A stretch of DNA of 64,000 bases from Escherichia phage FEC14. This document shows, piece after piece, positions 1 through 63,708 of this stretch (within the stretch, counting starts at the first letter, position 1; the number at the start of each line of letters is the position of its first letter). The DNA is taken from sequence record MG383452, one strand, 5' to 3'. Made by a program: the position numbers and the translations under genes. Below the pieces are notes generated by a model, which was not told where the DNA came from, did not search any database, and saw nothing but the letters and a program-made list of their open reading frames with translations.

Positions 1-20
1 GTGGGTTATTGAAGAAGTAA

Positions 21-36
21 AGGGGCTTTTGCCCCT
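21..36 (-). terminator. GC-rich hairpin (AGGGGC-TTTT-GCCCCT) with flanking T-run, just 3' of the 50..688 gene
   Basis: Inverted repeat read in sequence; lies immediately downstream of the minus-strand stop at 50; shares the TTATTGAAGAAGTAAA flank with the hairpin near 35245. Confidence 0.4.
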
Positions 37-49
37 TTTATTGAATATT

Positions 50-688
50 TTAAGGTGTTGGATTGACAACGGGAATATGGAACCTGATTCCAGAGACAAT
101 GTCCTTCAGCTGAGGCTTCCAGCCGTCCACCAGGCGGGACAACGCGTTAGAACCAGGATAGACAATAATGATGTCGCTTCCGGTTACATTATGTTGAGGG
201 AATTGTGACATGTATTGCTCCATCGTCACCCCTGGGTCTATCAACACAGGACCGACATCCGAAGATGCATATGTTGCCCCCAAACCGTCGACGCCCCATG
301 CTAGTATTCCATAATCAGGAATATTGGCTTCAGAAGTTATGGTGAATCCGAAGATACGATTCAGCGCAGAAAAATCATACACGCCGTGAGCACTGTCATA
401 TGTCAGATAACCCTTTGACAGCATATCAGCGAATATCGCGTCTGTGTCACCAGTTGCCGGAGTCGGTATGGTAAACAATAACTCACCAGCAGGAGGGGAT
501 GGATACGTGCCGAGCGCATAAAGGCACCAAGCGTCAATGCATTTCTTGATGAATGCTTCAGGCGCGACATAATCCGCAAGGCGCATTGTACCGGAATATT
601 CTGAAGTAATGATCCCTTCCTTCGCGCCCTGAATGGCCAGAAATACCATTATGTGTTCATATCCGGTCTGAGATGGAGTGATATTCAT
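50..688 (-). CDS. hypothetical protein (212 aa), translationally coupled to the upstream transglycosylase gene
   Basis: Long minus-strand ORF co-oriented with neighbours; start overlaps stop of the 688..1305 ORF; no motif recognised. Confidence 0.5.
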   Translation of the reverse strand: MNITPSQTGYEHIMVFLAIQGAKEGIITSEYSGTMRLADYVAPEAFIKKCIDAWCLYALGTYPSPPAGELLFTIPTPATGDTDAIFADMLSKGYLTYDSAHGVYDFSALNRIFGFTITSEANIPDYGILAWGVDGLGATYASSDVGPVLIDPGVTMEQYMSQFPQHNVTGSDIIIVYPGSNALSRLVDGWKPQLKDIVSGIRFHIPVVNPTP

Positions 689-1305
689 TATCTGGTCCTC
701 TTGAGTTTCTCAATCGTGCGCTTATTCATGGCGATCACTCCTGGGTCGACCTTTGGGTTTATTGCCATGCCTTTGAAAGACACACATCGTTGAAGATATT
801 TAGCCTTCTTCACGACGTCGGCTGCATAAGAATTGGATTTCTGGTTACGATTGAACCCAGCATTGTAAGAGGAAAGGGATTTGCGGATGTTTTGGTTATG
901 ATATTCTAGCCAGAAATTCATTTCATCAAGGGCAGCATTGGCAGCATATTCTTGATTGACCAGTAATTTGATCGCCACGTTGGCGTAACACTTCTGTGTT
1001 TTGCATCCCTCCCGTTTCCCGACGGTTTGGACGCGATTTTGAAATGCCCCCATATTAGCCGATTTGAGGTTATTCCGCATGGATACAACATCTTCTCCAG
1101 CGCGGCTTTCCCTCCATGATATTGCGGCGAGAGTGAAACCAAGGTCTTGTTGTTTTCCCACGTGATAGGCTGTGGCCATGGTTGAAAGTTGTTGATCAGA
1201 AAACTCATAATCACATTGGGTGGTACTTTGGGAAGCGTGCACACTCCCGCTGGCAATGGTAAAGGTCACGGACAAGGCCATGGCCTTCAACGTTGTCATC
1301 GTCAT
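688..1305 (-). CDS. secreted lytic transglycosylase (SLT-domain, lysozyme-like)
   Basis: N-terminal signal peptide (MTMTTLKAMALSVTFTIASGSVHA); SLT catalytic motifs ES (ISWRESRAG), GAFQ and SYNAG read in the translation; AAGGAA RBS upstream. Confidence 0.6.
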   Translation of the reverse strand: MTMTTLKAMALSVTFTIASGSVHASQSTTQCDYEFSDQQLSTMATAYHVGKQQDLGFTLAAISWRESRAGEDVVSMRNNLKSANMGAFQNRVQTVGKREGCKTQKCYANVAIKLLVNQEYAANAALDEMNFWLEYHNQNIRKSLSSYNAGFNRNQKSNSYAADVVKKAKYLQRCVSFKGMAINPKVDPGVIAMNKRTIEKLKRTR

Positions 1306-1371
1306 GATGGCGTTCCTTATGTGTTTGTCGACTTGCAGCTCGCTGGAGCCTCCTGACAGGGTTAAAAGATA

Positions 1372-1397
1372 AAGGGCACTTGATATTTAGTGCCCTT
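1372..1397 (-). terminator. hairpin AAGGGCACT-loop-AGTGCCCTT followed by T-rich tract; loop contains a CTAAATA motif
   Basis: Inverted repeat 3' of the 1402..1686 ORF and about 80 nt 5' of the transglycosylase gene. Confidence 0.4.
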
Positions 1398-1401
1398 CAC
1401 C

Positions 1402-1686
1402 TTATTCGTAGATCAGATGGTATGATTCCTCGATGCATTCCAACCAACCGTAGACAAATTCCATAGGATCATCCCAAGCTGTATTGGAAGCAATAGTGAA
1501 ATCCCCGTCCAAGATTTGCATGTCAGTATATTTGTTGAAACCTAACACGGCATCAACGACTATTAAGCCACCTTGCTCTAGATAACGCTTTGGGGTCAAC
1601 GTCACCTGATAATGTTTGTTTCGCTGATTCCATAACTCGACAGCGATATCACAAGCAATCTGAATTTCATCTTTCTCTTCTGACAT
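1402..1686 (-). CDS. hypothetical protein (94 aa)
   Basis: Minus-strand ORF in co-oriented gene array; no motif recognised. Confidence 0.4.
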   Translation of the reverse strand: MSEEKDEIQIACDIAVELWNQRNKHYQVTLTPKRYLEQGGLIVVDAVLGFNKYTDMQILDGDFTIASNTAWDDPMEFVYGWLECIEESYHLIYE

Positions 1687-8037: not shown

Positions 8038-9755
8038 ACCTCAAACACTGCATCGGTGAACCAGGTTGGGAAGAATTCTGGGTTGCGCATCATAAGAGAT
8101 TCAAAGGATGAATCAATGATGTATGTCGCAGCCCAGTCATCAACACCCCTGACCGAACGCCCACACATTTGAACAATGCGCAGTACTGCATTGCGGAAAT
8201 ATGCCGACGGATCCACTGAATTGATATGTGCTATCAGTGGATCGCCCAGATAATCATAAGGGACTTTGATCAGTATTTGGAAACGGCTGTAATCCCCTTT
8301 GAAATCATAACCTTCTTCCATAGCCGGACTGGCAATGACGCATGGGGACTTTGTTCTAAAAGCATTTTCCATAATATCCATCAACGCCTTTCGGGTGCGC
8401 GGAACATGGATAAAATTCTGATATTTACTGAATTTTTGTATTGCCAAGGCGCGATCATAACTCACTGTATGGATAATGCCGGACTGACCTGGGTGGAACG
8501 CGATTATTTCATCAATATATTCCGTCAACCTTTTCATTTCATAGTCGCCCATATTGTTAGTCATCTTCACTATGGGCATATAGTTGACTTTTCTGTTTTC
8601 AATTGGGATAGGGTTGCCGATCTGAATGGAATGATAATCCCCCTGTCGAATACCCAATGAACGAGCATAAGAATCTATGCCGCAGATCGTTGCTGACATA
8701 TGAACGTGATAATCGGCTTTTCGGAATAACCCGAATTCGCTTACATCAGAAGGCATAACAGGTTTAAACCGGATAAAATCTTCCCCCTTTTCTTGCACAA
8801 TAAATGTACTTGCTTGGGTTTGTGACATAATACCGCAATAATCACTCAAGTTATGCAAGACATCTATAATGTCTGCGAGTTTCATCACTTGGCTTTCACT
8901 CAAGCGATCATCTTCGACCAATTCTTCAAGAACTTCCAACAAATTTTCTACTTTGAGATGGAGGTCTTCAAACATTGAATGTAGTTCACCAGACAAAGAA
9001 TATAACTTGCCCAGGACATAGTCCTTGGTGCGTTCTACGATATCACCAATGGTAGAGACGATCTCCTTGCCCTCAGGGATAGAACGCAGCCCCTCCACGG
9101 CCTTTGTATTGTATTCCATGATCGTGTGCTCTAGGAGCGTAGAGGGCATTTTATGGCACTCGTCAAGGATCAGCATATCGGAACGGTTTTCGGGCTTCAT
9201 GCAGATGGTTGTACACATTTCGATCATCATGGCAGCATTAGTACAACGCAATGATGAAATATCCGTCCACAAATTACGCGCCTGTACATAAGGACAGCGG
9301 CGTTTGCTACAATGCCCGTCACGGCATGCTATACGGCATTGGACAGCATTGTAATACACATCTGGATGTACGTGGCAACGATAGTTCTTCTTGCCTTTTA
9401 GGATGTCTATCGCCACCGCCTTTTCAGCAGCATACTGATCTTGCAGACCTTTGGTCGGGGTGCTGATAGAAGTGCGAAATTGCCCATAAGGATCAGCCTG
9501 TAAAACTAGATGGCGAATCACTTTATGAATGGTAGTGCCAATCAAAGATTTACCGACACCTGTCGGAGCTTCAATGATGACATGTTTAACCTTTTTGTTG
9601 ATAAGCGCATCTATGGCTTCGACGATGCATTCCATCTGGCCTGGGTTCGCTTTGTCATATGGGAATTCATCTTTGGTAAGGCGTTGTATTTCTTCCACAG
9701 GAACCTTACGGCCTATGGCGTCAATCGCCTTTCGGTGTTGATTAAATGCTGTCAC
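8034..9755 (-). CDS. DinG/XPD-family (Rad3-like) DNA helicase with Fe-S cluster cysteines
   Basis: Walker A APTGVGKS, DEAH box LILDECH, four-Cys cluster (CHVH...CRIACRDGHCSKRRCPY) typical of Fe-S helicases; AGGAGGAA RBS. Confidence 0.8.
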   Translation of the reverse strand: MTAFNQHRKAIDAIGRKVPVEEIQRLTKDEFPYDKANPGQMECIVEAIDALINKKVKHVIIEAPTGVGKSLIGTTIHKVIRHLVLQADPYGQFRTSISTPTKGLQDQYAAEKAVAIDILKGKKNYRCHVHPDVYYNAVQCRIACRDGHCSKRRCPYVQARNLWTDISSLRCTNAAMMIEMCTTICMKPENRSDMLILDECHKMPSTLLEHTIMEYNTKAVEGLRSIPEGKEIVSTIGDIVERTKDYVLGKLYSLSGELHSMFEDLHLKVENLLEVLEELVEDDRLSESQVMKLADIIDVLHNLSDYCGIMSQTQASTFIVQEKGEDFIRFKPVMPSDVSEFGLFRKADYHVHMSATICGIDSYARSLGIRQGDYHSIQIGNPIPIENRKVNYMPIVKMTNNMGDYEMKRLTEYIDEIIAFHPGQSGIIHTVSYDRALAIQKFSKYQNFIHVPRTRKALMDIMENAFRTKSPCVIASPAMEEGYDFKGDYSRFQILIKVPYDYLGDPLIAHINSVDPSAYFRNAVLRIVQMCGRSVRGVDDWAATYIIDSSFESLMMRNPEFFPTWFTDAVFEV

Positions 9756-9890
9756 GTTGTTCCTCCTTTGGATTCTGTTATAGTTTACCCGAATCCCAAC
9801 AACGAAAAAGCCGAGGCATTAACCTCGGCTTCTCCTTTTAGCCTTGCGCCGCTGCACTGCAGACATGCGCTGGGCCGACGCCTGGTGTGA

Positions 9891-10169
9891 TTACTGGCCG
9901 TTGGCAGCAGCTTTCAGACCTTCACCGACTTTGAATTTAACTACATTTTTCGCTTCGATCTGGATCTGTTGTCCGTTCAGCGGGTTGCGGCCAGTGCGCG
10001 CTTCCTGATGTTTAACTTCGAACGCGCCGAAGCCTACGAATTGGACAGATTGGCCAGCCGCGACTGCAGTTTTCACGCCATTGATAAAAGATGCAACGAT
10101 TTTCTCAGCTTCGCCTTTGGTCATACCCTGGGTTTGAGCGATGTGAGCGATAAAATCAGTACGGTTCAT
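9891..10169 (-). CDS. HU/IHF-family DNA-binding protein
   Basis: From internal Met (MNRTDFIAHIAQ...) aligns end to end with E. coli HU incl. FVGFGAFEV and RTGRNPLNG arm motif; track ORF has a 12-aa N-terminal extension judged spurious. Confidence 0.8.
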   Translation of the reverse strand: MNRTDFIAHIAQTQGMTKGEAEKIVASFINGVKTAVAAGQSVQFVGFGAFEVKHQEARTGRNPLNGQQIQIEAKNVVKFKVGEGLKAAANGQ

Positions 10170-10252: not shown

Positions 10253-11047
10253 TTATTTGCCGACGTTTAGCATTTTACTTGAGCCTGAACCATCAACAAT
10301 CAGAGTACATTTCCCGCTGTTGGCGCAAGATTGCAACACCATGTTATATTCGTGTTGTAAATATTCAGGTGTCAGAGATGTCGTCAGTTTCTGATTCGCC
10401 CTGGCTTCTTGGTCTCGAATTTCAACGTTCTTTCTTGCTGTATCCAAACGTTTGTCGGCCATGACATTATCACGGATAGATTGCTCAATCGAAGGATCTG
10501 TCAGCGCCTTTTTGACCAACACGCGTGTGATTGTGAACATGCCAGGTGCAGCTGTTTCTAATTGCTGCTGGGTGCGTTCCTTGATCATCTTTTCTAACTC
10601 AGCCCGTTGGGTGTGAATTGTCATAGAATCCAAAGAGGAAACGGCGTCCATCGTTGAGGATGCTGCGGCGGTTTTAACCAGGTTGAATCCCACCGCTATC
10701 GTGCCGTCACCGAGTTCAGCGCTCTGACCTGCAAATTTGGTATGGAACCAAGGAACCTTCGCGACGTTCGGTGTGTAATAAACGTCCACATCCAGATCTT
10801 CCAAGGTCAGGTTGTCTTTGGCCTTTGGCGTCATTTTCGTCAGACTCACAACGGCTTCTTTGGTCGTGTAAACATCCACGCTTGAAACAAAGCTGGTGTA
10901 GATCCCCGCTGTTACAGGGTTCATGTCTACTTCACCCCATTGGGTGCGAACGCCGACATTACCTTCATCGATAACGCCACCACAACCAGAAAGTAGACTT
11001 GCAGCCAGAACCATAATTGCACCAAACACCAATTTCTTGAACATCAA
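10253..11047 (-). CDS. lipoprotein (264 aa), possible SPFH/band-7-like
   Basis: Signal peptide with lipobox LLSGC read in translation; downstream fold assignment is a guess. Confidence 0.55.
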   Translation of the reverse strand: MMFKKLVFGAIMVLAASLLSGCGGVIDEGNVGVRTQWGEVDMNPVTAGIYTSFVSSVDVYTTKEAVVSLTKMTPKAKDNLTLEDLDVDVYYTPNVAKVPWFHTKFAGQSAELGDGTIAVGFNLVKTAAASSTMDAVSSLDSMTIHTQRAELEKMIKERTQQQLETAAPGMFTITRVLVKKALTDPSIEQSIRDNVMADKRLDTARKNVEIRDQEARANQKLTTSLTPEYLQHEYNMVLQSCANSGKCTLIVDGSGSSKMLNVGK

Positions 11048-13437: not shown

Positions 13438-13758
13438 TTATCTTTGATTTCCAACGAAATTAGTCGCTATTTCCCGACACATAGTCAGATCTTTGATCGT
13501 CTGTTTGCTATTGTCGGCAGCGGACTCCATCATTGGCAAATCCAAAGCATTCTCTATTTGATCCACGCTGTAGAGATCAAGGCGTTTCAACTCACCTTCA
13601 TAATCTGATAAAAGGATGGATGTATCTTTATCATCAGGGTGAAATTGTTGATAAGTAGACAACCAGGCCGCACACATATTCAATTTGCTAGCCGGAGTTG
13701 CCACAACTTGGAATGATGCCAACATAGAAAAGAATAACAAGAATATTATGTTTCTCAT
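13438..13758 (-). CDS. small secreted protein (106 aa, signal peptide)
   Basis: N-terminal MRNIIFLLFFSMLASFQVVA signal-like sequence. Confidence 0.5.
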   Translation of the reverse strand: MRNIIFLLFFSMLASFQVVATPASKLNMCAAWLSTYQQFHPDDKDTSILLSDYEGELKRLDLYSVDQIENALDLPMMESAADNSKQTIKDLTMCREIATNFVGNQR

Positions 13759-14444
13759 CTTTCGTTCTCCTTCATCATATTATCACAGTCAATTCTTGTT
13801 TGCTTGAGTTCACGGGCAAGCCTGGGATCATCAAGATTGACAGACAAATTAGTGGAAAGATCTTTCAAACCATTCTGAACACGGTCTTCATAATAATGAT
13901 CATTTTCCACCAGCCATGCTCTCAGGCCAAGGGCGCGAGTCCGCCATTCCTTTTTCAAACGTCGATCTGATTCTTGATCAGCACTGTATTCAAATACTCG
14001 GATACATTGGTTGCCATCATTGATGAGATCCAGCTGACGTCGGCCAACCTGCACACCTTTTTGTAATGCTGGAGAAGGAAGAGAACGGCACTGTCTTACG
14101 GTCATTCGTCCTTGTGTGCCCATACGACCAGTCATGATGAGATCGCCAGCCTCCATGCCTCCTCGATTAAATTCTTTGTCGTTCATATATCCTTTCAGGT
14201 TGAACGCGCCTTGCTTATATCGATTAAACTCAATACCAGCATTTACAACGGCATCTGTGACATTACCTGTGGCCCAGAGTTCAGCAAAGTTCTCTATGGA
14301 ACCAGTTTTGTCTATAGCGACGGCTTGGGAGAACCCAGCACAGTAGGAAAGATCAGACCACAGTTTTTCACCTGTGGAGTTCAGCTTGGCGGTGGCAGGA
14401 AGTGCCAGACCAGCCAGCACAACCCCGATGATTAAACGTTTCAT
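13755..14444 (-). CDS. secreted protein (about 229 aa from internal Met MKRLIIGVVLAGLALPATA)
   Basis: Signal peptide begins at internal Met preceded by GGAGA RBS; track ORF 13755..14609 has a 55-aa extension that overlaps the upstream gene. Confidence 0.5.
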   Translation of the reverse strand: MKRLIIGVVLAGLALPATAKLNSTGEKLWSDLSYCAGFSQAVAIDKTGSIENFAELWATGNVTDAVVNAGIEFNRYKQGAFNLKGYMNDKEFNRGGMEAGDLIMTGRMGTQGRMTVRQCRSLPSPALQKGVQVGRRQLDLINDGNQCIRVFEYSADQESDRRLKKEWRTRALGLRAWLVENDHYYEDRVQNGLKDLSTNLSVNLDDPRLARELKQTRIDCDNMMKENER

Positions 14445-14523
14445 GGTGATTCTCCTTATTTCATTGGATAAAATGATAGGGCTGTCACCATGTTGAGTAA
14501 AGGGTTTCAATAAACTATCGTAT

Positions 14524-14973
14524 TCAGAAACGGGTATCGCTGACCGTTCTGTATCGCACACCCTGAAACTGTTTAGCGAGTTTAACAAATTCCATCGCTG
14601 GCAAATCAACTTTGTAGACCTTCATGCGCTGTTTGCCGTCCATGTTCAACGCAGCGACAAATCGGTGAGACCCGTCAACAACGTAATTGTCAGAAGACAC
14701 CCAAACTCGACCCATGGGCTTCTTATTTCTGATCTGCTTCATAATCTTCCAGACCTTCATTTTATTGATTTCGTTCTGGGTAAGACGAAGCATTTTGATG
14801 GGCACTTGCGCAGCATCTATGGACACGCCGTTGTCTTCAAGATATTTGTGAAAATCTTCTTGTTTGTCGGCATCGATTTGCGGCATAGAAGAACGAGAAA
14901 GCCCGAGGTTCCCAACAGGAATCCTCAGGCCATTTATGATATTCATCCAGTCAATAAAGGATGTAAGGAACAT
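14524..14973 (-). CDS. hypothetical protein (149 aa)
   Basis: Minus-strand ORF. Confidence 0.45.
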   Translation of the reverse strand: MFLTSFIDWMNIINGLRIPVGNLGLSRSSMPQIDADKQEDFHKYLEDNGVSIDAAQVPIKMLRLTQNEINKMKVWKIMKQIRNKKPMGRVWVSSDNYVVDGSHRFVAALNMDGKQRMKVYKVDLPAMEFVKLAKQFQGVRYRTVSDTRF

Positions 14974-30481: not shown

Positions 30482-30507
30482 TAATTTCCCCCAATATTAT
30501 GGAGTAT

Positions 30508-31281
30508 TTAGCGATCCGCCCAGATTCCTTTCTGTTCTTTACCCATTTTGTGATACAGACGGACACGATCAAACATTTTAGAAATAACGTCTTTGCGATC
30601 GAATTCGATTATGGTGGGAACAAGGGCATTTTCGTTGGATATAATATTGATTAAACGCTCTATCTTGACATTAAACATTTGTTGAAACATGACTGAGTAT
30701 AGACACAATTGAATACTATAATCTTCTATCATGCTTCGAGTTTTTAGGGTGTTGGATGTTTTGAAATCGATTATGCTTGGAATTCCTTCGTAAACCCCGA
30801 TGAGGTCAACACGACCAGCAAGACCCAGGACTTCGCTATATAATGGAATCTCTTGTGCATATATCTTGCTCATTTTGTTAAGGTAGGGGAAAACCTGTTT
30901 GAACATAAACACGTATTCCCCTGCAGCTTCCAGAACTTCCTTCATTGGTCTGTTTTTGAGATACAACTCACAAGCCAAATGAAGTTTTTCCCCACGGTCT
31001 GCGCAACGATGTGTTTCTATATCAGCAGCTTCATGTCCCAACTTGTCCCGCCAGGCTTCTAACCATGTGTGGTCACCAGTACGCCCTAACATGGTCGTCA
31101 CTGAAGTTAGTTTGACTCCAGTGGGGGAAACATAGTGACGACCATTTTCGGTAGTTACGCAAGTCAGTTCCTTAAACGGCAAGGAATATTGCTGAAATGT
31201 GTGATGACGATTTTCAAAGTCATTAAGTTTGCGCAAAGCCTGTAGAGAAACCATTACATCCCATCCAAATATTTTCGCCAA
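30508..31281 (-). CDS. putative PD-(D/E)xK nuclease
   Basis: GRVDLIGVYEGIPSIIDFKTS fits D...(D/E)xK catalytic motif; located between uvsW and uvsY. Confidence 0.45.
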   Translation of the reverse strand: MAKIFGWDVMVSLQALRKLNDFENRHHTFQQYSLPFKELTCVTTENGRHYVSPTGVKLTSVTTMLGRTGDHTWLEAWRDKLGHEAADIETHRCADRGEKLHLACELYLKNRPMKEVLEAAGEYVFMFKQVFPYLNKMSKIYAQEIPLYSEVLGLAGRVDLIGVYEGIPSIIDFKTSNTLKTRSMIEDYSIQLCLYSVMFQQMFNVKIERLINIISNENALVPTIIEFDRKDVISKMFDRVRLYHKMGKEQKGIWADR

Positions 31282-39419: not shown

Positions 39420-39447
39420 GATAGTTTCCTTCTGAACGATTTTTCAG

Positions 39448-39454
39448 TATTTAG
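39448..39454 (-). promoter_or_regulatory. candidate late promoter CTAAATA (minus-strand sense) about 30 nt upstream of gp22
   Basis: Motif recurs upstream of several late structural genes. Confidence 0.45.
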
Positions 39455-40638: not shown

Positions 40639-40665
40639 GATTTTGATCTCCGAATTAATTTTCTA

Positions 40666-40672
40666 TATTTAG
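40666..40672 (-). promoter_or_regulatory. candidate late promoter CTAAATA upstream of the gp67-like ORF
   Basis: Motif about 28 nt upstream of ATG. Confidence 0.4.
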
Positions 40673-45406: not shown

Positions 45407-45448
45407 AATATCATTCCTTCTCGGTAGAGTTTCGCTCAATTTGAAAGA

Positions 45449-45455
45449 TATTTAG
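45449..45455 (-). promoter_or_regulatory. candidate late promoter CTAAATA upstream of gp18
   Basis: Motif about 40 nt upstream of the proposed gp18 ATG, just after the gp17 stop. Confidence 0.45.
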
Positions 45456-49675: not shown

Positions 49676-49698
49676 GACTTTACCCTCAATTTTGAAGG

Positions 49699-49705
49699 TA
49701 TTTAG
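49699..49705 (-). promoter_or_regulatory. candidate late promoter CTAAATA upstream of gp14-gp17 operon
   Basis: Motif about 25 nt upstream of gp14 ATG. Confidence 0.45.
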
Positions 49706-56181: not shown

Positions 56182-56214
56182 TTTGATGCTCCATCTAGTG
56201 CCATTTTATAGAGA

Positions 56215-56221
56215 TATTTAG
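56215..56221 (-). promoter_or_regulatory. candidate late promoter CTAAATA upstream of the 1612-aa gene
   Basis: Motif about 35 nt upstream of ATG. Confidence 0.45.
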
Positions 56222-61434: not shown

Positions 61435-61441
61435 GGTATTT
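61435..61441 (-). promoter_or_regulatory. candidate late promoter CTAAATACCCCAT upstream of the 926-aa tailspike
   Basis: Part of an about 50-nt module nearly identical to that upstream of the 710-aa tailspike. Confidence 0.45.
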
Positions 61442-61505
61442 AGGCTGAACTAATAAAATTTATAATAAGATCCCCCCGCTTTTGGCGAGGAGGGATGGTT
61501 GTTAA

Positions 61506-63670: not shown

Positions 63671-63677
63671 GTATTTA
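63671..63677 (-). promoter_or_regulatory. candidate late promoter CTAAATACCCCAT upstream of the 710-aa tailspike
   Basis: Second copy of the shared upstream module. Confidence 0.45.
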
Positions 63678-63708
63678 GTCTGAACTAATCAAATTTATGA
63701 ACAAAGGT

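Follow-up and report, generated by a model that had tools for sequence, protein, structure and literature searches.

A predicted exported muralytic enzyme of the Vs.1 family encoded in an overlapping gene pair with a DUF7270 virion protein in a Kuttervirus genome

The window analyzed here, a 64,000-nucleotide stretch of DNA from Escherichia phage FEC14 (record MG383452), is from a Kuttervirus (Ackermannviridae; Salmonella ViI/SFP10-like) and has 99.5% DNA identity with Salmonella phage SF02. Positions 50 to 1305 contain exactly two open reading frames, both on the minus strand: the first, at 688..1305, codes for 205 amino acids and is assigned by Pfam SLT, PHROG 600, BLASTP against T4 Vs.1 and Foldseek to a putative muralytic pre-protein of the Vs.1 family with a GH23/SLT-like domain, and the second, at 50..688, codes for a 212-residue member of Pfam family DUF7270. 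Both are real genes as judged by their database matches (E = 4e-60 to PHROG 600 for the 205-aa protein and E = 5e-120 to DUF7270 for the 212-aa protein), and in six Ackermannviridae genera both products are conserved, at identities down to about 56%; the 205-aa protein is 100% identical to GenBank proteins of phages Se-B and RA148. On one side the pair is adjoined by small genes of unknown function together with the gp46/47 recombination genes, and on the other by virion-protein genes. Scans of the window for tRNAs and Rfam families returned nothing.

The junction of the two genes reads AAGAGGACCAGATAATG on the minus strand, and base 688 is common to the stop codon TAA (690-688) and the start codon ATG (688-686), giving the 1-nt overlap TAATG at 686-690. 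A first-pass annotation had described the stop of a transglycosylase gene overlapping the start of a 212-aa reading frame, and this is indeed the arrangement, to which we add that it lies on the minus strand. The enzyme gene has a Shine-Dalgarno sequence, AAGGAA, 7 nt before its ATG (1313..1318, minus strand; read directly from the sequence), and that of the 212-aa reading frame, AAGAGGA, lies within the 3′ end of the enzyme gene, 7 nt 5′ of the second ATG (696..702, minus strand). Overlaps are common locally: in kage, a phage 98.7% identical to this one, 7 of the 17 adjacent same-strand pairs of the corresponding region overlap, and the present case is by itself unremarkable. The notable part is its conservation, as all eight loci compared, which represent six Ackermannviridae genera, retain the 1-nt overlap together with its Shine-Dalgarno sequence.

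The 212-aa protein, previously described simply as the product of an unknown gene, has no signal peptide, and its relatives form only 22 clusters, all of which have DUF7270 and all of which are from Ackermannviridae. Foldseek identified no fold relatives outside its own family in the PDB or BFVD, so no function can be proposed from its structure; a profile search of PDB sequences yielded noise only. DUF7270 is a virion protein, two relatives having yielded it in purified particles: LIMEstone1 ORF085 is a "confirmed structural protein" with four peptides in the virion proteome (PMC3296691), and the Vi01 record labels Vi01_096c "phage associated protein".

The 205-aa protein matches phage T4 Vs.1 (P13311, gene vs.1) in a BLASTP comparison with E = 8e-21 and 31% identity over 172 residues, and its residues 7-179 align with positions 4-176 of the 178-position PHROG 600 profile. 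These homologies identify it as an orthologue of T4 Vs.1, and not as RegB, the name that it bears in many database records. The Vs.1 family (PHROG 600) comprises 613 representative clusters and 2,104 phage records, its myovirus orthologues being found in T4-like, ViI-like and Felix O1-like phages; no relatives were found in a scan of bacterial and archaeal genomes with the narrow patterns of the Ackermannviridae alignment. A marginal SLT similarity of vs.1, along with a proposed role in lysis, was noted in 2006 by Nolan et al. (PMC1524935), and we found no functional study of Vs.1 in the literature searched. The genes, the family and the SLT resemblance are already on record in PHROG 600, Pfam DUF7270 and Nolan et al., and at least one database record already names the protein "lytic transglycosylase".

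The match of the 205-aa protein to Pfam SLT (PF01464) is marginal, with a score of 21.6 bits against a cutoff of 21.3 over residues 57-164; T4 Vs.1 scores 25.1 bits against the same model, and NCBIfam has no match for the 205-aa protein, the 212-aa protein or T4 Vs.1. The catalytic Glu-Ser motif of the first-pass annotation corresponds to E66-S67 within WRESRAG (codons GAA AGC, 1105..1110, minus strand), and the glutamate, whose non-conservation on alignment was named there as refuting, proves invariant, with E66 present in 150 of 151 relatives and residue 67 a serine or threonine in 150 of 151 (Ser in 143, Thr in 7). The downstream GH23 motifs are kept as well: Y147, G150 and Y160 are each found in 150 of the 151 relatives and G86 in 144, and position 89 is a Q or an H in 139. 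A search of PDB sequences with the single sequence gave no match; with a profile, the segments WRESRAG, GAFQN, SYNAG and YAADVVKKAKYL aligned with RESHAG, GLMQV, AYNAG and YANDVVARAQYY of goose lysozyme, a weak match (E = 0.3), and the E66-S67 segment also aligned with the NES segment of EtgA. In goose lysozyme, we take the glutamate of the aligned RES(H)AG to be the catalytic Glu73. An AlphaFold2 model of the 205-aa protein has a pLDDT of 79, with residues 1-28 disordered (pLDDT below 50), and the top 25 Foldseek matches to this model in the PDB are all GH23 enzymes, with E values of only 0.04-0.8 and TM scores of 0.35-0.47; MltD, a GH23 chitinase and Slt/Slt70 are the top matches (probability up to 1.00), MltE is lower (0.25-0.8), and TM scores for these leading matches are 0.40-0.47. 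Sequence and model together support the presence of a divergent GH23/SLT-like domain of the goose-lysozyme superfamily, predicted to be muralytic. The earlier description of an SLT-domain transglycosylase is supported by a score just above the SLT cutoff, by the GH23 fold matches and by the invariant glutamate; lytic transglycosylases, which leave a 1,6-anhydro product on cleaving MurNAc-GlcNAc bonds, and hydrolytic g-type lysozymes are indistinguishable by sequence.

At its N-terminus the 205-aa protein begins with MTMTTLKAMALSVTFTIASGSVHA, followed by SQ, which places V-H-A at positions −3 to −1 of a predicted cleavage site. The n-region includes Lys, and the h-region is moderately hydrophobic, its best 12-aa window having a Kyte-Doolittle mean of 1.63; the call is heuristic, based on the −3/−1 rule and on a 12-aa window in residues 1-40 whose mean reaches at least 1.6. 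Codons 1-24 (1234..1305, minus strand) would thus specify a Sec signal peptide cleaved between VHA and SQ, in agreement with the cleavable-looking signal peptide noted previously. Similar N-termini are present in 134-143 of the 151 relatives (134 at a mean of at least 1.6), typically with MKK, a Leu-rich core and AxA, and T4 Vs.1 starts with MRKALLAGLLAISMMAHS followed by SE. The h-region of the Kuttervirus protein is weakly hydrophobic, is rich in Ala, Ser, Thr and Gly, and ends in VHA before the S, whereas those of most relatives are strongly hydrophobic and Leu-rich with AxA sites. A lipoprotein was also considered and was rejected on inspection of the N-terminal sequences, in which no lipobox Cys falls where cleavage is expected. 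The cysteines co-vary: Cys32 and Cys174 are both present in 69 relatives, both absent in 63 and discordant in 19, and Cys101 and Cys106 occur together, within the Ackermannviridae branch. This co-occurrence fits periplasmic disulfides, and we infer that the 205-aa protein is exported by the Sec system with cleavage of its signal peptide.

The pair is bracketed by two predicted RNA hairpins. The upstream one (1366..1403, minus strand), a 15-bp stem followed by UUUAUCUUUU, resembles an intrinsic terminator and appears to close the upstream gene block; it has a folding energy of −22.6 kcal/mol (z = −6.9 against shuffled sequences) and is conserved in Vi01, LIMEstone1 and EspM4VN. The downstream hairpin (19..38, minus strand; −13.6 kcal/mol, z = −4.1) closes the two-gene unit, and on the minus strand it is only terminator-like: a terminator scan reports a hairpin at 16-42 as terminator-like on the plus strand, and the T-run on the minus strand, the genes' own, is weak. 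The LIMEstone1 record has a terminator at the corresponding position.

Within the loop of the upstream hairpin, 85 nt 5′ of the ATG of the enzyme gene, lies CTAAATAT (1383..1390, minus strand), which may serve as the −10 element of a gp55-type late promoter. The more general form, CTAAATAY, occurs ten times in the window, always on the coding strand, and eight of the ten lie upstream of genes in noncoding DNA, which makes up 6.6% of the window; the genes that follow it include those for the head scaffold, tail sheath and neck, a 1612-aa structural gene, two tail-spike genes and the enzyme gene. It lies upstream of the enzyme orthologue at 7 of 8 loci, the exception being Taipeivirus UPM2146, where it is missing within 350 nt upstream. 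A second copy is found within the enzyme gene itself (796..803, minus strand), 112-115 nt 5′ of the DUF7270 ATG, where it spans Ala-Lys-Tyr-Leu codons; it is present at 8 of 8 loci in six genera, its synonymous positions are invariant (xCT AAA TAT) and the flanking codons are variable, and on this conservation it is a candidate internal late promoter for DUF7270; phiMAM1 has two matches where 0.18 are expected. We note also that the LIMEstone1 record has a late promoter annotated before ORF086. The T4 consensus TATAAATA has only two matches in the window, not above chance, and gave way to CTAAATAY, chosen for its observed enrichment; a scan for sigma-70 promoters gave weak matches only, the sole one near the enzyme start being rejected because it overlaps the ATG.

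The spacing of the motif counts against a promoter function, with 85-218 nt between motif and ATG for the enzyme gene as compared with 27-48 nt for the structural genes. Its distribution nevertheless suggests late expression of both genes, and because the motif that precedes head and tail genes is here placed within the terminator loop of the upstream block, the enzyme gene is probably insulated from earlier transcription and turned on late. Such timing would be a departure from T4, in which vs.1 is classed as an early RNA and a middle protein. We found no Kuttervirus transcriptome in the literature searched, and the 2011 paper on CBA120 (PMC3184105) called the late promoter of ViI-like phages unidentified; CTAAATAY is a good candidate for it.

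We consider it reasonably probable (about 60%) that the locus is a hairpin-bracketed two-gene unit of Kuttervirus that specifies a late, Sec-exported accessory muralytic enzyme together with a separately promoted virion protein. The 205-aa pre-protein would begin with a cleavable Sec signal peptide of 24 aa, followed by a divergent GH23 catalytic domain, would be exported into the periplasm with no need of a holin, would be stabilized there through disulfides, probably C32-C174 and C101-C106, and would cut the glycan strands of peptidoglycan with Glu66 as the acid catalyst. Acting near the end of infection, it would play an accessory part, in weakening the wall or in lysis, beside the canonical endolysin. 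DUF7270 would be co-expressed with it and could also be expressed alone, because a Shine-Dalgarno sequence of its own and the conserved internal CTAAATAT precede it; and since the two products would go to different compartments, their coupling would concern expression and imply no functional partnership. Vs.1 is kept in about 2,100 genomes of large virulent myoviruses, including T4, and looks like an exported wall-cutting enzyme.

The alternative that survives best, albeit an unlikely one, is that the enzyme is a virion-associated glycosidase, perhaps acting with DUF7270, that helps the tail through the peptidoglycan and complements a tail hub equipped with a CHAP peptidase and not a lysozyme; the gp5 homologue carries Gp5_OB and CHAP but lacks a glycosidase domain (PMC3184105). 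The enzyme orthologue of Sajous1, gp211, is listed with 31 spectra in the proteome of CsCl-purified virions, more than the obvious contaminants of the same table and similar to neck and baseplate proteins. In addition to having a late-promoter-like motif, the enzyme gene heads a block of virion-protein genes, in which "phage associated protein" is the Vi01 label of 096c, 094c and 093c, and LIMEstone1 ORF081/082, 080 and 078, the counterparts of 094c, 093c and 092c, are confirmed structural. However, further non-structural proteins, among them ParB (11 spectra), appear in the Sajous1 table, in T4 the orthologue belongs to the early/middle proteins, and the virion proteomes of Vi01 and LIMEstone1 (PMC3296691 for the latter) include the DUF7270 protein but do not list the enzyme orthologue. 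The cleavable-type export signal, which is conserved throughout the family, argues against assembly of the enzyme into particles, because those of tailed phages assemble in the cytoplasm, and the paired cysteines fit the periplasm. The virion evidence is thus conflicting, with one proteome in favor and two having DUF7270 only, and the suggestion in the first-pass annotation of a virion-associated hydrolase is favored by the Sajous1 spectra and disfavored by the other two proteomes and the export signal; equally, the 31 spectra are not easily explained by an enzyme confined to the periplasm. A more specific version, which we regard as doubtful, is that the Vs.1-type enzyme of ViI-like phages, its export signal notwithstanding, is carried by the virion, loaded for instance once export or lysis has taken place or by way of DUF7270, and supplies the glycan cutting that is missing from the CHAP-only hub. 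If this is true, the gene pair would be a previously unrecognized cell-wall penetration module, and it would provide a first function for the Vs.1 family, also present in T4.

Somewhat less plausible still is a periplasmic wall-remodelling enzyme of early or middle infection, acting during infection and not at lysis, for example in enlargement under lysis inhibition or in a change of the wall against superinfection. This would accord with T4 vs.1, an early RNA and middle protein that is detected a few minutes post infection, with the neighboring genes for replication and recombination (gp46/47, gp55, RNase H and primase), and with the T4-like lysis inhibition of CBA120 (PMC3184105), but it fits poorly with the strong terminator between the enzyme gene and the upstream block, with a late-type motif as the sole recognizable promoter-like element, and with a gene that overlaps, in the same orientation, one for a virion protein.

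It is improbable, slightly more so than wall remodelling, that the 205-aa protein is the primary endolysin, either secreted or of the SAR type, exported early and activated on membrane depolarization. The predicted export signal and the muralytic domain occur together, the weak hydrophobicity and the composition of the Kuttervirus h-region could suit a SAR anchor, and no endolysin had been recognized by 2011 in CBA120, ViI or AG3 (PMC3184105). Nonetheless, a separate canonical gene with PG_binding_1 and Muramidase (PF11860) domains, kage_91, is located about 7 kb from the pair in phage kage, and the LIMEstone1 record calls this gene the endolysin, with a late promoter before it, so the 205-aa enzyme is not expected to be the main endolysin; T4 likewise carries endolysin E as well as Vs.1. 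The signals of the relatives, being strongly hydrophobic and Leu-rich with AxA sites, are unlike SAR anchors, and neither a holin nor a spanin gene flanks the pair among its neighbors in kage and Vi01, a check for such genes nearby having been advised in the first-pass annotation; the proposal there of a secreted endolysin is accordingly not sustained for the main lysin. A review of the Ackermannviridae does not mention lysis genes.

The reading given in many GenBank records, of a RegB-type site-specific endoribonuclease, can be dismissed, since it has in its favor inherited labels only ("RegB", "endoribonuclease", "site-specific RNA endonuclease", also in a published virion-proteome table) and is refuted at the sequence level: BLASTP against T4 RegB is empty (best E = 1.3 over 21 residues), Pfam REGB_T4 (PF10715) scores 230.8 bits on T4 RegB and has no hit to the 205-aa protein at E ≤ 1, and the matches of the latter are to T4 Vs.1 and GH23 enzymes instead. 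The label may have slipped because the true regB is immediately upstream of vs.1 in T4. The name "RegB / endoribonuclease" in many Ackermannviridae records is therefore wrong and should be replaced by Vs.1-like GH23 muramidase, a correction that eases interpretation of the 31 spectra from virion preparations.

Among known systems, the 205-aa protein has nothing in common with T4 RegB other than the database label and the adjacency of regB and vs.1 in T4. Virion-associated hydrolases such as T4 gp5, T7 gp16 and PRD1 P7 are usually a domain of a structural protein, whereas the 205-aa enzyme is stand-alone with a predicted signal peptide. Exported phage endolysins reach the wall without a holin channel and include Lys44 of fOg44, a signal-peptide endolysin, and the SAR endolysins P1 Lyz and R21 of phage 21; like the 205-aa enzyme, these join an export signal at the N-terminus to a muralytic domain, but they are the sole endolysins of their phages, whereas here there is a separate canonical endolysin, and the signals in the Vs.1 family look cleavable, unlike those of SAR endolysins. 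With the GH23 enzymes, comprising the family-1 lytic transglycosylases Slt70, MltD, MltE and EtgA and the goose-type lysozyme, the 205-aa protein would share the lysozyme-like helical fold suggested by its model, and the bacterial members are periplasmic, as the phage protein would be by its predicted export; it differs in being very divergent and in being a small stand-alone domain with no lipobox, LysM or superhelical domains, and the position of the goose lysozyme (GEWL) residue that we take to be numbered Asp97 is an Asn or an Ile in its family. The closest likeness is to T4 Vs.1, which is of the same size class and shares the predicted N-terminal signal peptide and the E-S, Y-N-x-G and Y-A motifs. 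The Ackermannviridae branch departs from it in having four extra conserved cysteines and a basic C-terminal tail of about 30 residues, in a late-type promoter motif at a gene whose T4 counterpart gives an early RNA and middle protein, and in its genomic setting, where the enzyme gene is followed by DUF7270 with the conserved 1-nt overlap and T4 vs.1 is followed by vs.

Two open reading frames, both on the minus strand, occupy positions 50-1305: a 205-aa enzyme gene at 688..1305 and a 212-aa gene of the DUF7270 family at 50..688. Their minus-strand junction reads AAGAGGACCAGATAATG; the stop-start overlap described in the first-pass annotation consists of base 688, common to the stop codon TAA and the start codon ATG, and the DUF7270 ATG is preceded at 7 nt by a strong Shine-Dalgarno sequence. 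The observation of a gene pair is thus confirmed, and the interpretation placed on it was right in part. The 1-nt overlap is kept in all eight loci compared, and overlaps are frequent in the genome, occurring in 7 of 17 adjacent gene pairs. Hairpins flank the pair on both sides: the upstream one (1366-1403; -22.6 kcal/mol, z -6.9) precedes a U-run, and the downstream one lies at 19-38 (-13.6 kcal/mol, z -4.1). The window is from a Kuttervirus (Ackermannviridae), its first 2.5 kb sharing 99.5% identity with Salmonella phage SF02 and having 163 phage records that each cover 80% or more of it; genes nearby encode the gp46/gp47 recombination nuclease, the gp55 late sigma factor, RNase H and a helicase. 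GenBank already has identical copies of the 205-aa protein, and the whole content of the region is already catalogued. Upstream of the pair, a 94-aa minus-strand ORF at 1402-1686 (PHROG 4165, 'unknown function') overlaps by 20 nt a 109-aa minus-strand ORF at 1667-1996 encoding a DUF4326 protein, named 'NrdA.1' in records.

The 205-aa protein is probably, as judged from sequence, a Sec-exported GH23 muralytic enzyme of the phage T4 Vs.1 family, expressed late and accessory to a canonical endolysin, and the overlapping gene encodes a virion-associated protein. The Pfam SLT profile matches the enzyme barely above its cutoff (21.6 bits against 21.3), and PHROG 600, described as 'unknown function', aligns with its full length (E 4e-60). 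A word-indexed search returned only 25 clusters, of Ackermannviridae type, and a profile built from these reached 613 representative clusters (E <= 1e-3), mostly of 160-200 aa, from which 151 relatives were taken for alignment. Loss of the catalytic glutamate from this alignment, set beforehand as the test against the SLT assignment, was not seen: Glu66 is present in 150 of the 151 relatives, as are Ser or Thr at position 67 and, individually, Tyr147, Gly150 and Tyr160, and the SLT domain and Glu-Ser motif proposed in the first-pass annotation are supported. A profile search of PDB sequences gave weak matches (E 0.3) to goose lysozyme and EtgA, in which WRESRAG, GAFQN, SYNAG and YAADVVKKAKYL align with the corresponding motifs. 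The AlphaFold model (pLDDT 79, residues 1-28 disordered) has its best PDB structural matches exclusively among GH23 proteins, namely MltD, a GH23 chitinase and Slt70, with match probabilities up to 1.00, and MltE, with lower values of 0.25-0.8; TM-scores are modest throughout (0.40-0.47), with E about 0.04. We conclude that the protein appears to have a divergent GH23 muramidase-type domain, a class within which sequence does not separate anhydro-muropeptide-forming from hydrolytic enzymes.

The cleavable-looking signal peptide noted earlier is likewise supported by the sequence pattern. The N-terminus, MTMTTLKAMALSVTFTIASGSVHA/SQ (the slash marking the predicted cleavage site), follows the n/h/c pattern of Sec signals, V-H-A occupying positions -3 to -1, and that of T4 Vs.1 is MRKALLAGLLAISMMAHS/SE. 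Relatives typically begin with MKK, a leucine-rich core and AxA, and 134 of the 151 contain, within their first 40 residues, a 12-residue window with a mean Kyte-Doolittle value of at least 1.6; inspection by eye of the N-terminal sequences of the protein and its relatives revealed no lipobox. This pattern suggests Sec export. Of the relatives, 69 have both Cys174 and a cysteine just past the predicted cleavage site, 63 have neither and 19 are discordant, and Cys101 and Cys106 co-occur in the Ackermannviridae branch; the co-variation fits periplasmic disulfides, with the association inflated by shared ancestry.

The window shows no enrichment of the T4 late consensus TATAAATA. The sequence CTAAATAY, extending roughly to ACTAAATAYC, occurs 10 times, always on the minus (coding) strand, with 3.6 copies expected on both strands together. 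Eight copies lie in the noncoding 6.6% of the window, 27-85 nt upstream of gene starts (1383-1390, 39447-39454, 40665-40672, 45448-45455, 49698-49705, 56214-56221, 61436-61443 and 63671-63678), and two within coding sequence (796-803 and 30504-30511). Genes following the noncoding copies include those for the head scaffold, tail sheath, head closure/neck, a 1612-aa structural protein and two tail-spike proteins. The LIMEstone1 record has annotated TAAATA-type late promoters, one of them before ORF086, the enzyme counterpart. The late promoter of ViI-like phages was called unidentified in the 2011 CBA120 paper (PMC3184105), and CTAAATAY is a good candidate for this gp55-type promoter; our literature search found no Kuttervirus transcriptome.

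The copy at 1383-1390, GCACTAAATATC, lies in the loop of the upstream hairpin. The motif precedes the ATG of the enzyme orthologue in seven of eight loci (six genera), at a distance of 85-87 or 209-218 nt, and is absent within 350 nt of the ATG in Taipeivirus UPM2146. All eight loci also have a copy within the enzyme coding sequence, 112-115 nt upstream of the DUF7270 ATG, with invariant synonymous positions (xCT AAA TAT) among variable flanking codons; phiMAM1 has two motif matches with 0.18 expected. We infer that transcription from upstream would stop at the hairpin, shielding the pair, that a late promoter in its loop would switch the pair on, and that the internal motif would provide DUF7270 with a further, separate promoter. 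In LIMEstone1, two more of the annotated late promoters are located within hairpins or immediately behind them, and the combination of terminator and late promoter suggests a recurring arrangement.

The first-pass annotation also raised the possibility of a virion-associated hydrolase. The tail-hub gp5 homologue consists of Gp5_OB and CHAP without a glycosidase domain (also PMC3184105), so a virion glycosidase is plausible. In the near-identical phage kage (L006) the gp5 homologue lies outside the window at 8329-9954, with Gp5_OB and a CHAP peptidase and no lysozyme domain, from which the particle appears to carry a peptidase and no glycosidase. However, LIMEstone1 virions yielded ORF085 (DUF7270; 4 peptides, 17% coverage) but not ORF086, and in the Vi01 record 096c (DUF7270) is a 'phage associated protein' whereas the enzyme, 097c, is only 'hypothetical'; the published Sajous1 CsCl-virion table lists the enzyme orthologue gp211 (31 spectra), and gp212 (DUF7270) is absent from it. 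The virion evidence conflicts, and in view of the export signal shared by the enzyme relatives we regard true virion association of the enzyme as unlikely. Recovery from virions is the only functional lead on DUF7270, a family of 22 clusters, all from Ackermannviridae, with many invariant polar residues (AF2 pLDDT 76.5), for which profile searches gave no matches and fold comparison found no relatives in the PDB or, outside its own family, in BFVD. Directly downstream of the pair and just beyond the window start (1522-5945 in L001 and 114-3900 in L009, from related phages) is a block encoding small and large proteins that were detected in Vi01, LIMEstone1 and Sajous1 virions; among them are proteins of about 795 aa (196 spectra), 189 aa, 79 aa and 117 aa (DUF5856), with no Pfam assignment apart from DUF5856.

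The secreted-endolysin proposal, in the sense of the main endolysin, is unsupported because a canonical endolysin is encoded elsewhere and the pair has no holin or spanin gene next to it: kage (98.7% identical) has a 264-aa PG_binding_1 plus Muramidase (PF11860) protein roughly 7 kb past the start of the window, and the corresponding LIMEstone1 protein carries the annotation endolysin, together with a late promoter. Elsewhere on the minus strand are overlapping adjacent ORFs with signal-peptide-like N-termini at 13438-13758, the equivalent of which is an 'Rz-like spanin' in the Vi01 RefSeq record, and 13755-14609, and a 264-aa ORF at 10253-11047 with a lipoprotein-type N-terminus (…LLSGC…).

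Many GenBank Ackermannviridae records label the orthologue 'RegB', 'endoribonuclease' or 'site-specific RNA endonuclease', including L001, L004, L005 and L010, and such a label is also used in a published virion-proteome table. We reject this identity as an annotation error, since direct comparison with T4 RegB gave no similarity (best E 1.3 across 21 residues) and Pfam REGB_T4, which scores 230.8 bits on T4 RegB, does not match the 205-aa protein, yet T4 Vs.1 matches clearly (31% identity across 172 residues, E 8e-21). In T4, vs.1 is directly downstream of regB, and the label possibly arose by a slip from the adjoining gene. The correction of this label and the candidate late-promoter motif for ViI-like phages are useful by-products of the analysis.

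The enzyme of the pair is the orthologue of Vs.1, itself a weak SLT match (25.1 bits), whose family spans 2,104 phage records from T4-like, ViI-like, Felix O1-like and other phages. Scattered members are labelled 'putative lytic murein transglycosylase', 'SLT domain-containing protein' or 'putative lysin', and one Kuttervirus record already has 'lytic transglycosylase'; a 2006 paper (PMC1524935) had noted that vs.1 resembles SLT marginally and suggested a role in lysis, and our literature search found no functional study of Vs.1. A basic tail of about 30 codons (688-780, …NKRTIEKLKRTR), modelled as helices, is present at the C-terminus of the Ackermannviridae enzymes and missing from T4 Vs.1, and Vs.1 homologues outside the Ackermannviridae have no DUF7270 neighbour. 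The systems would also differ in timing, as T4 vs.1 has early RNA and middle protein (PMC9697503 supplement), whereas the Kuttervirus enzyme gene is predicted to be late.
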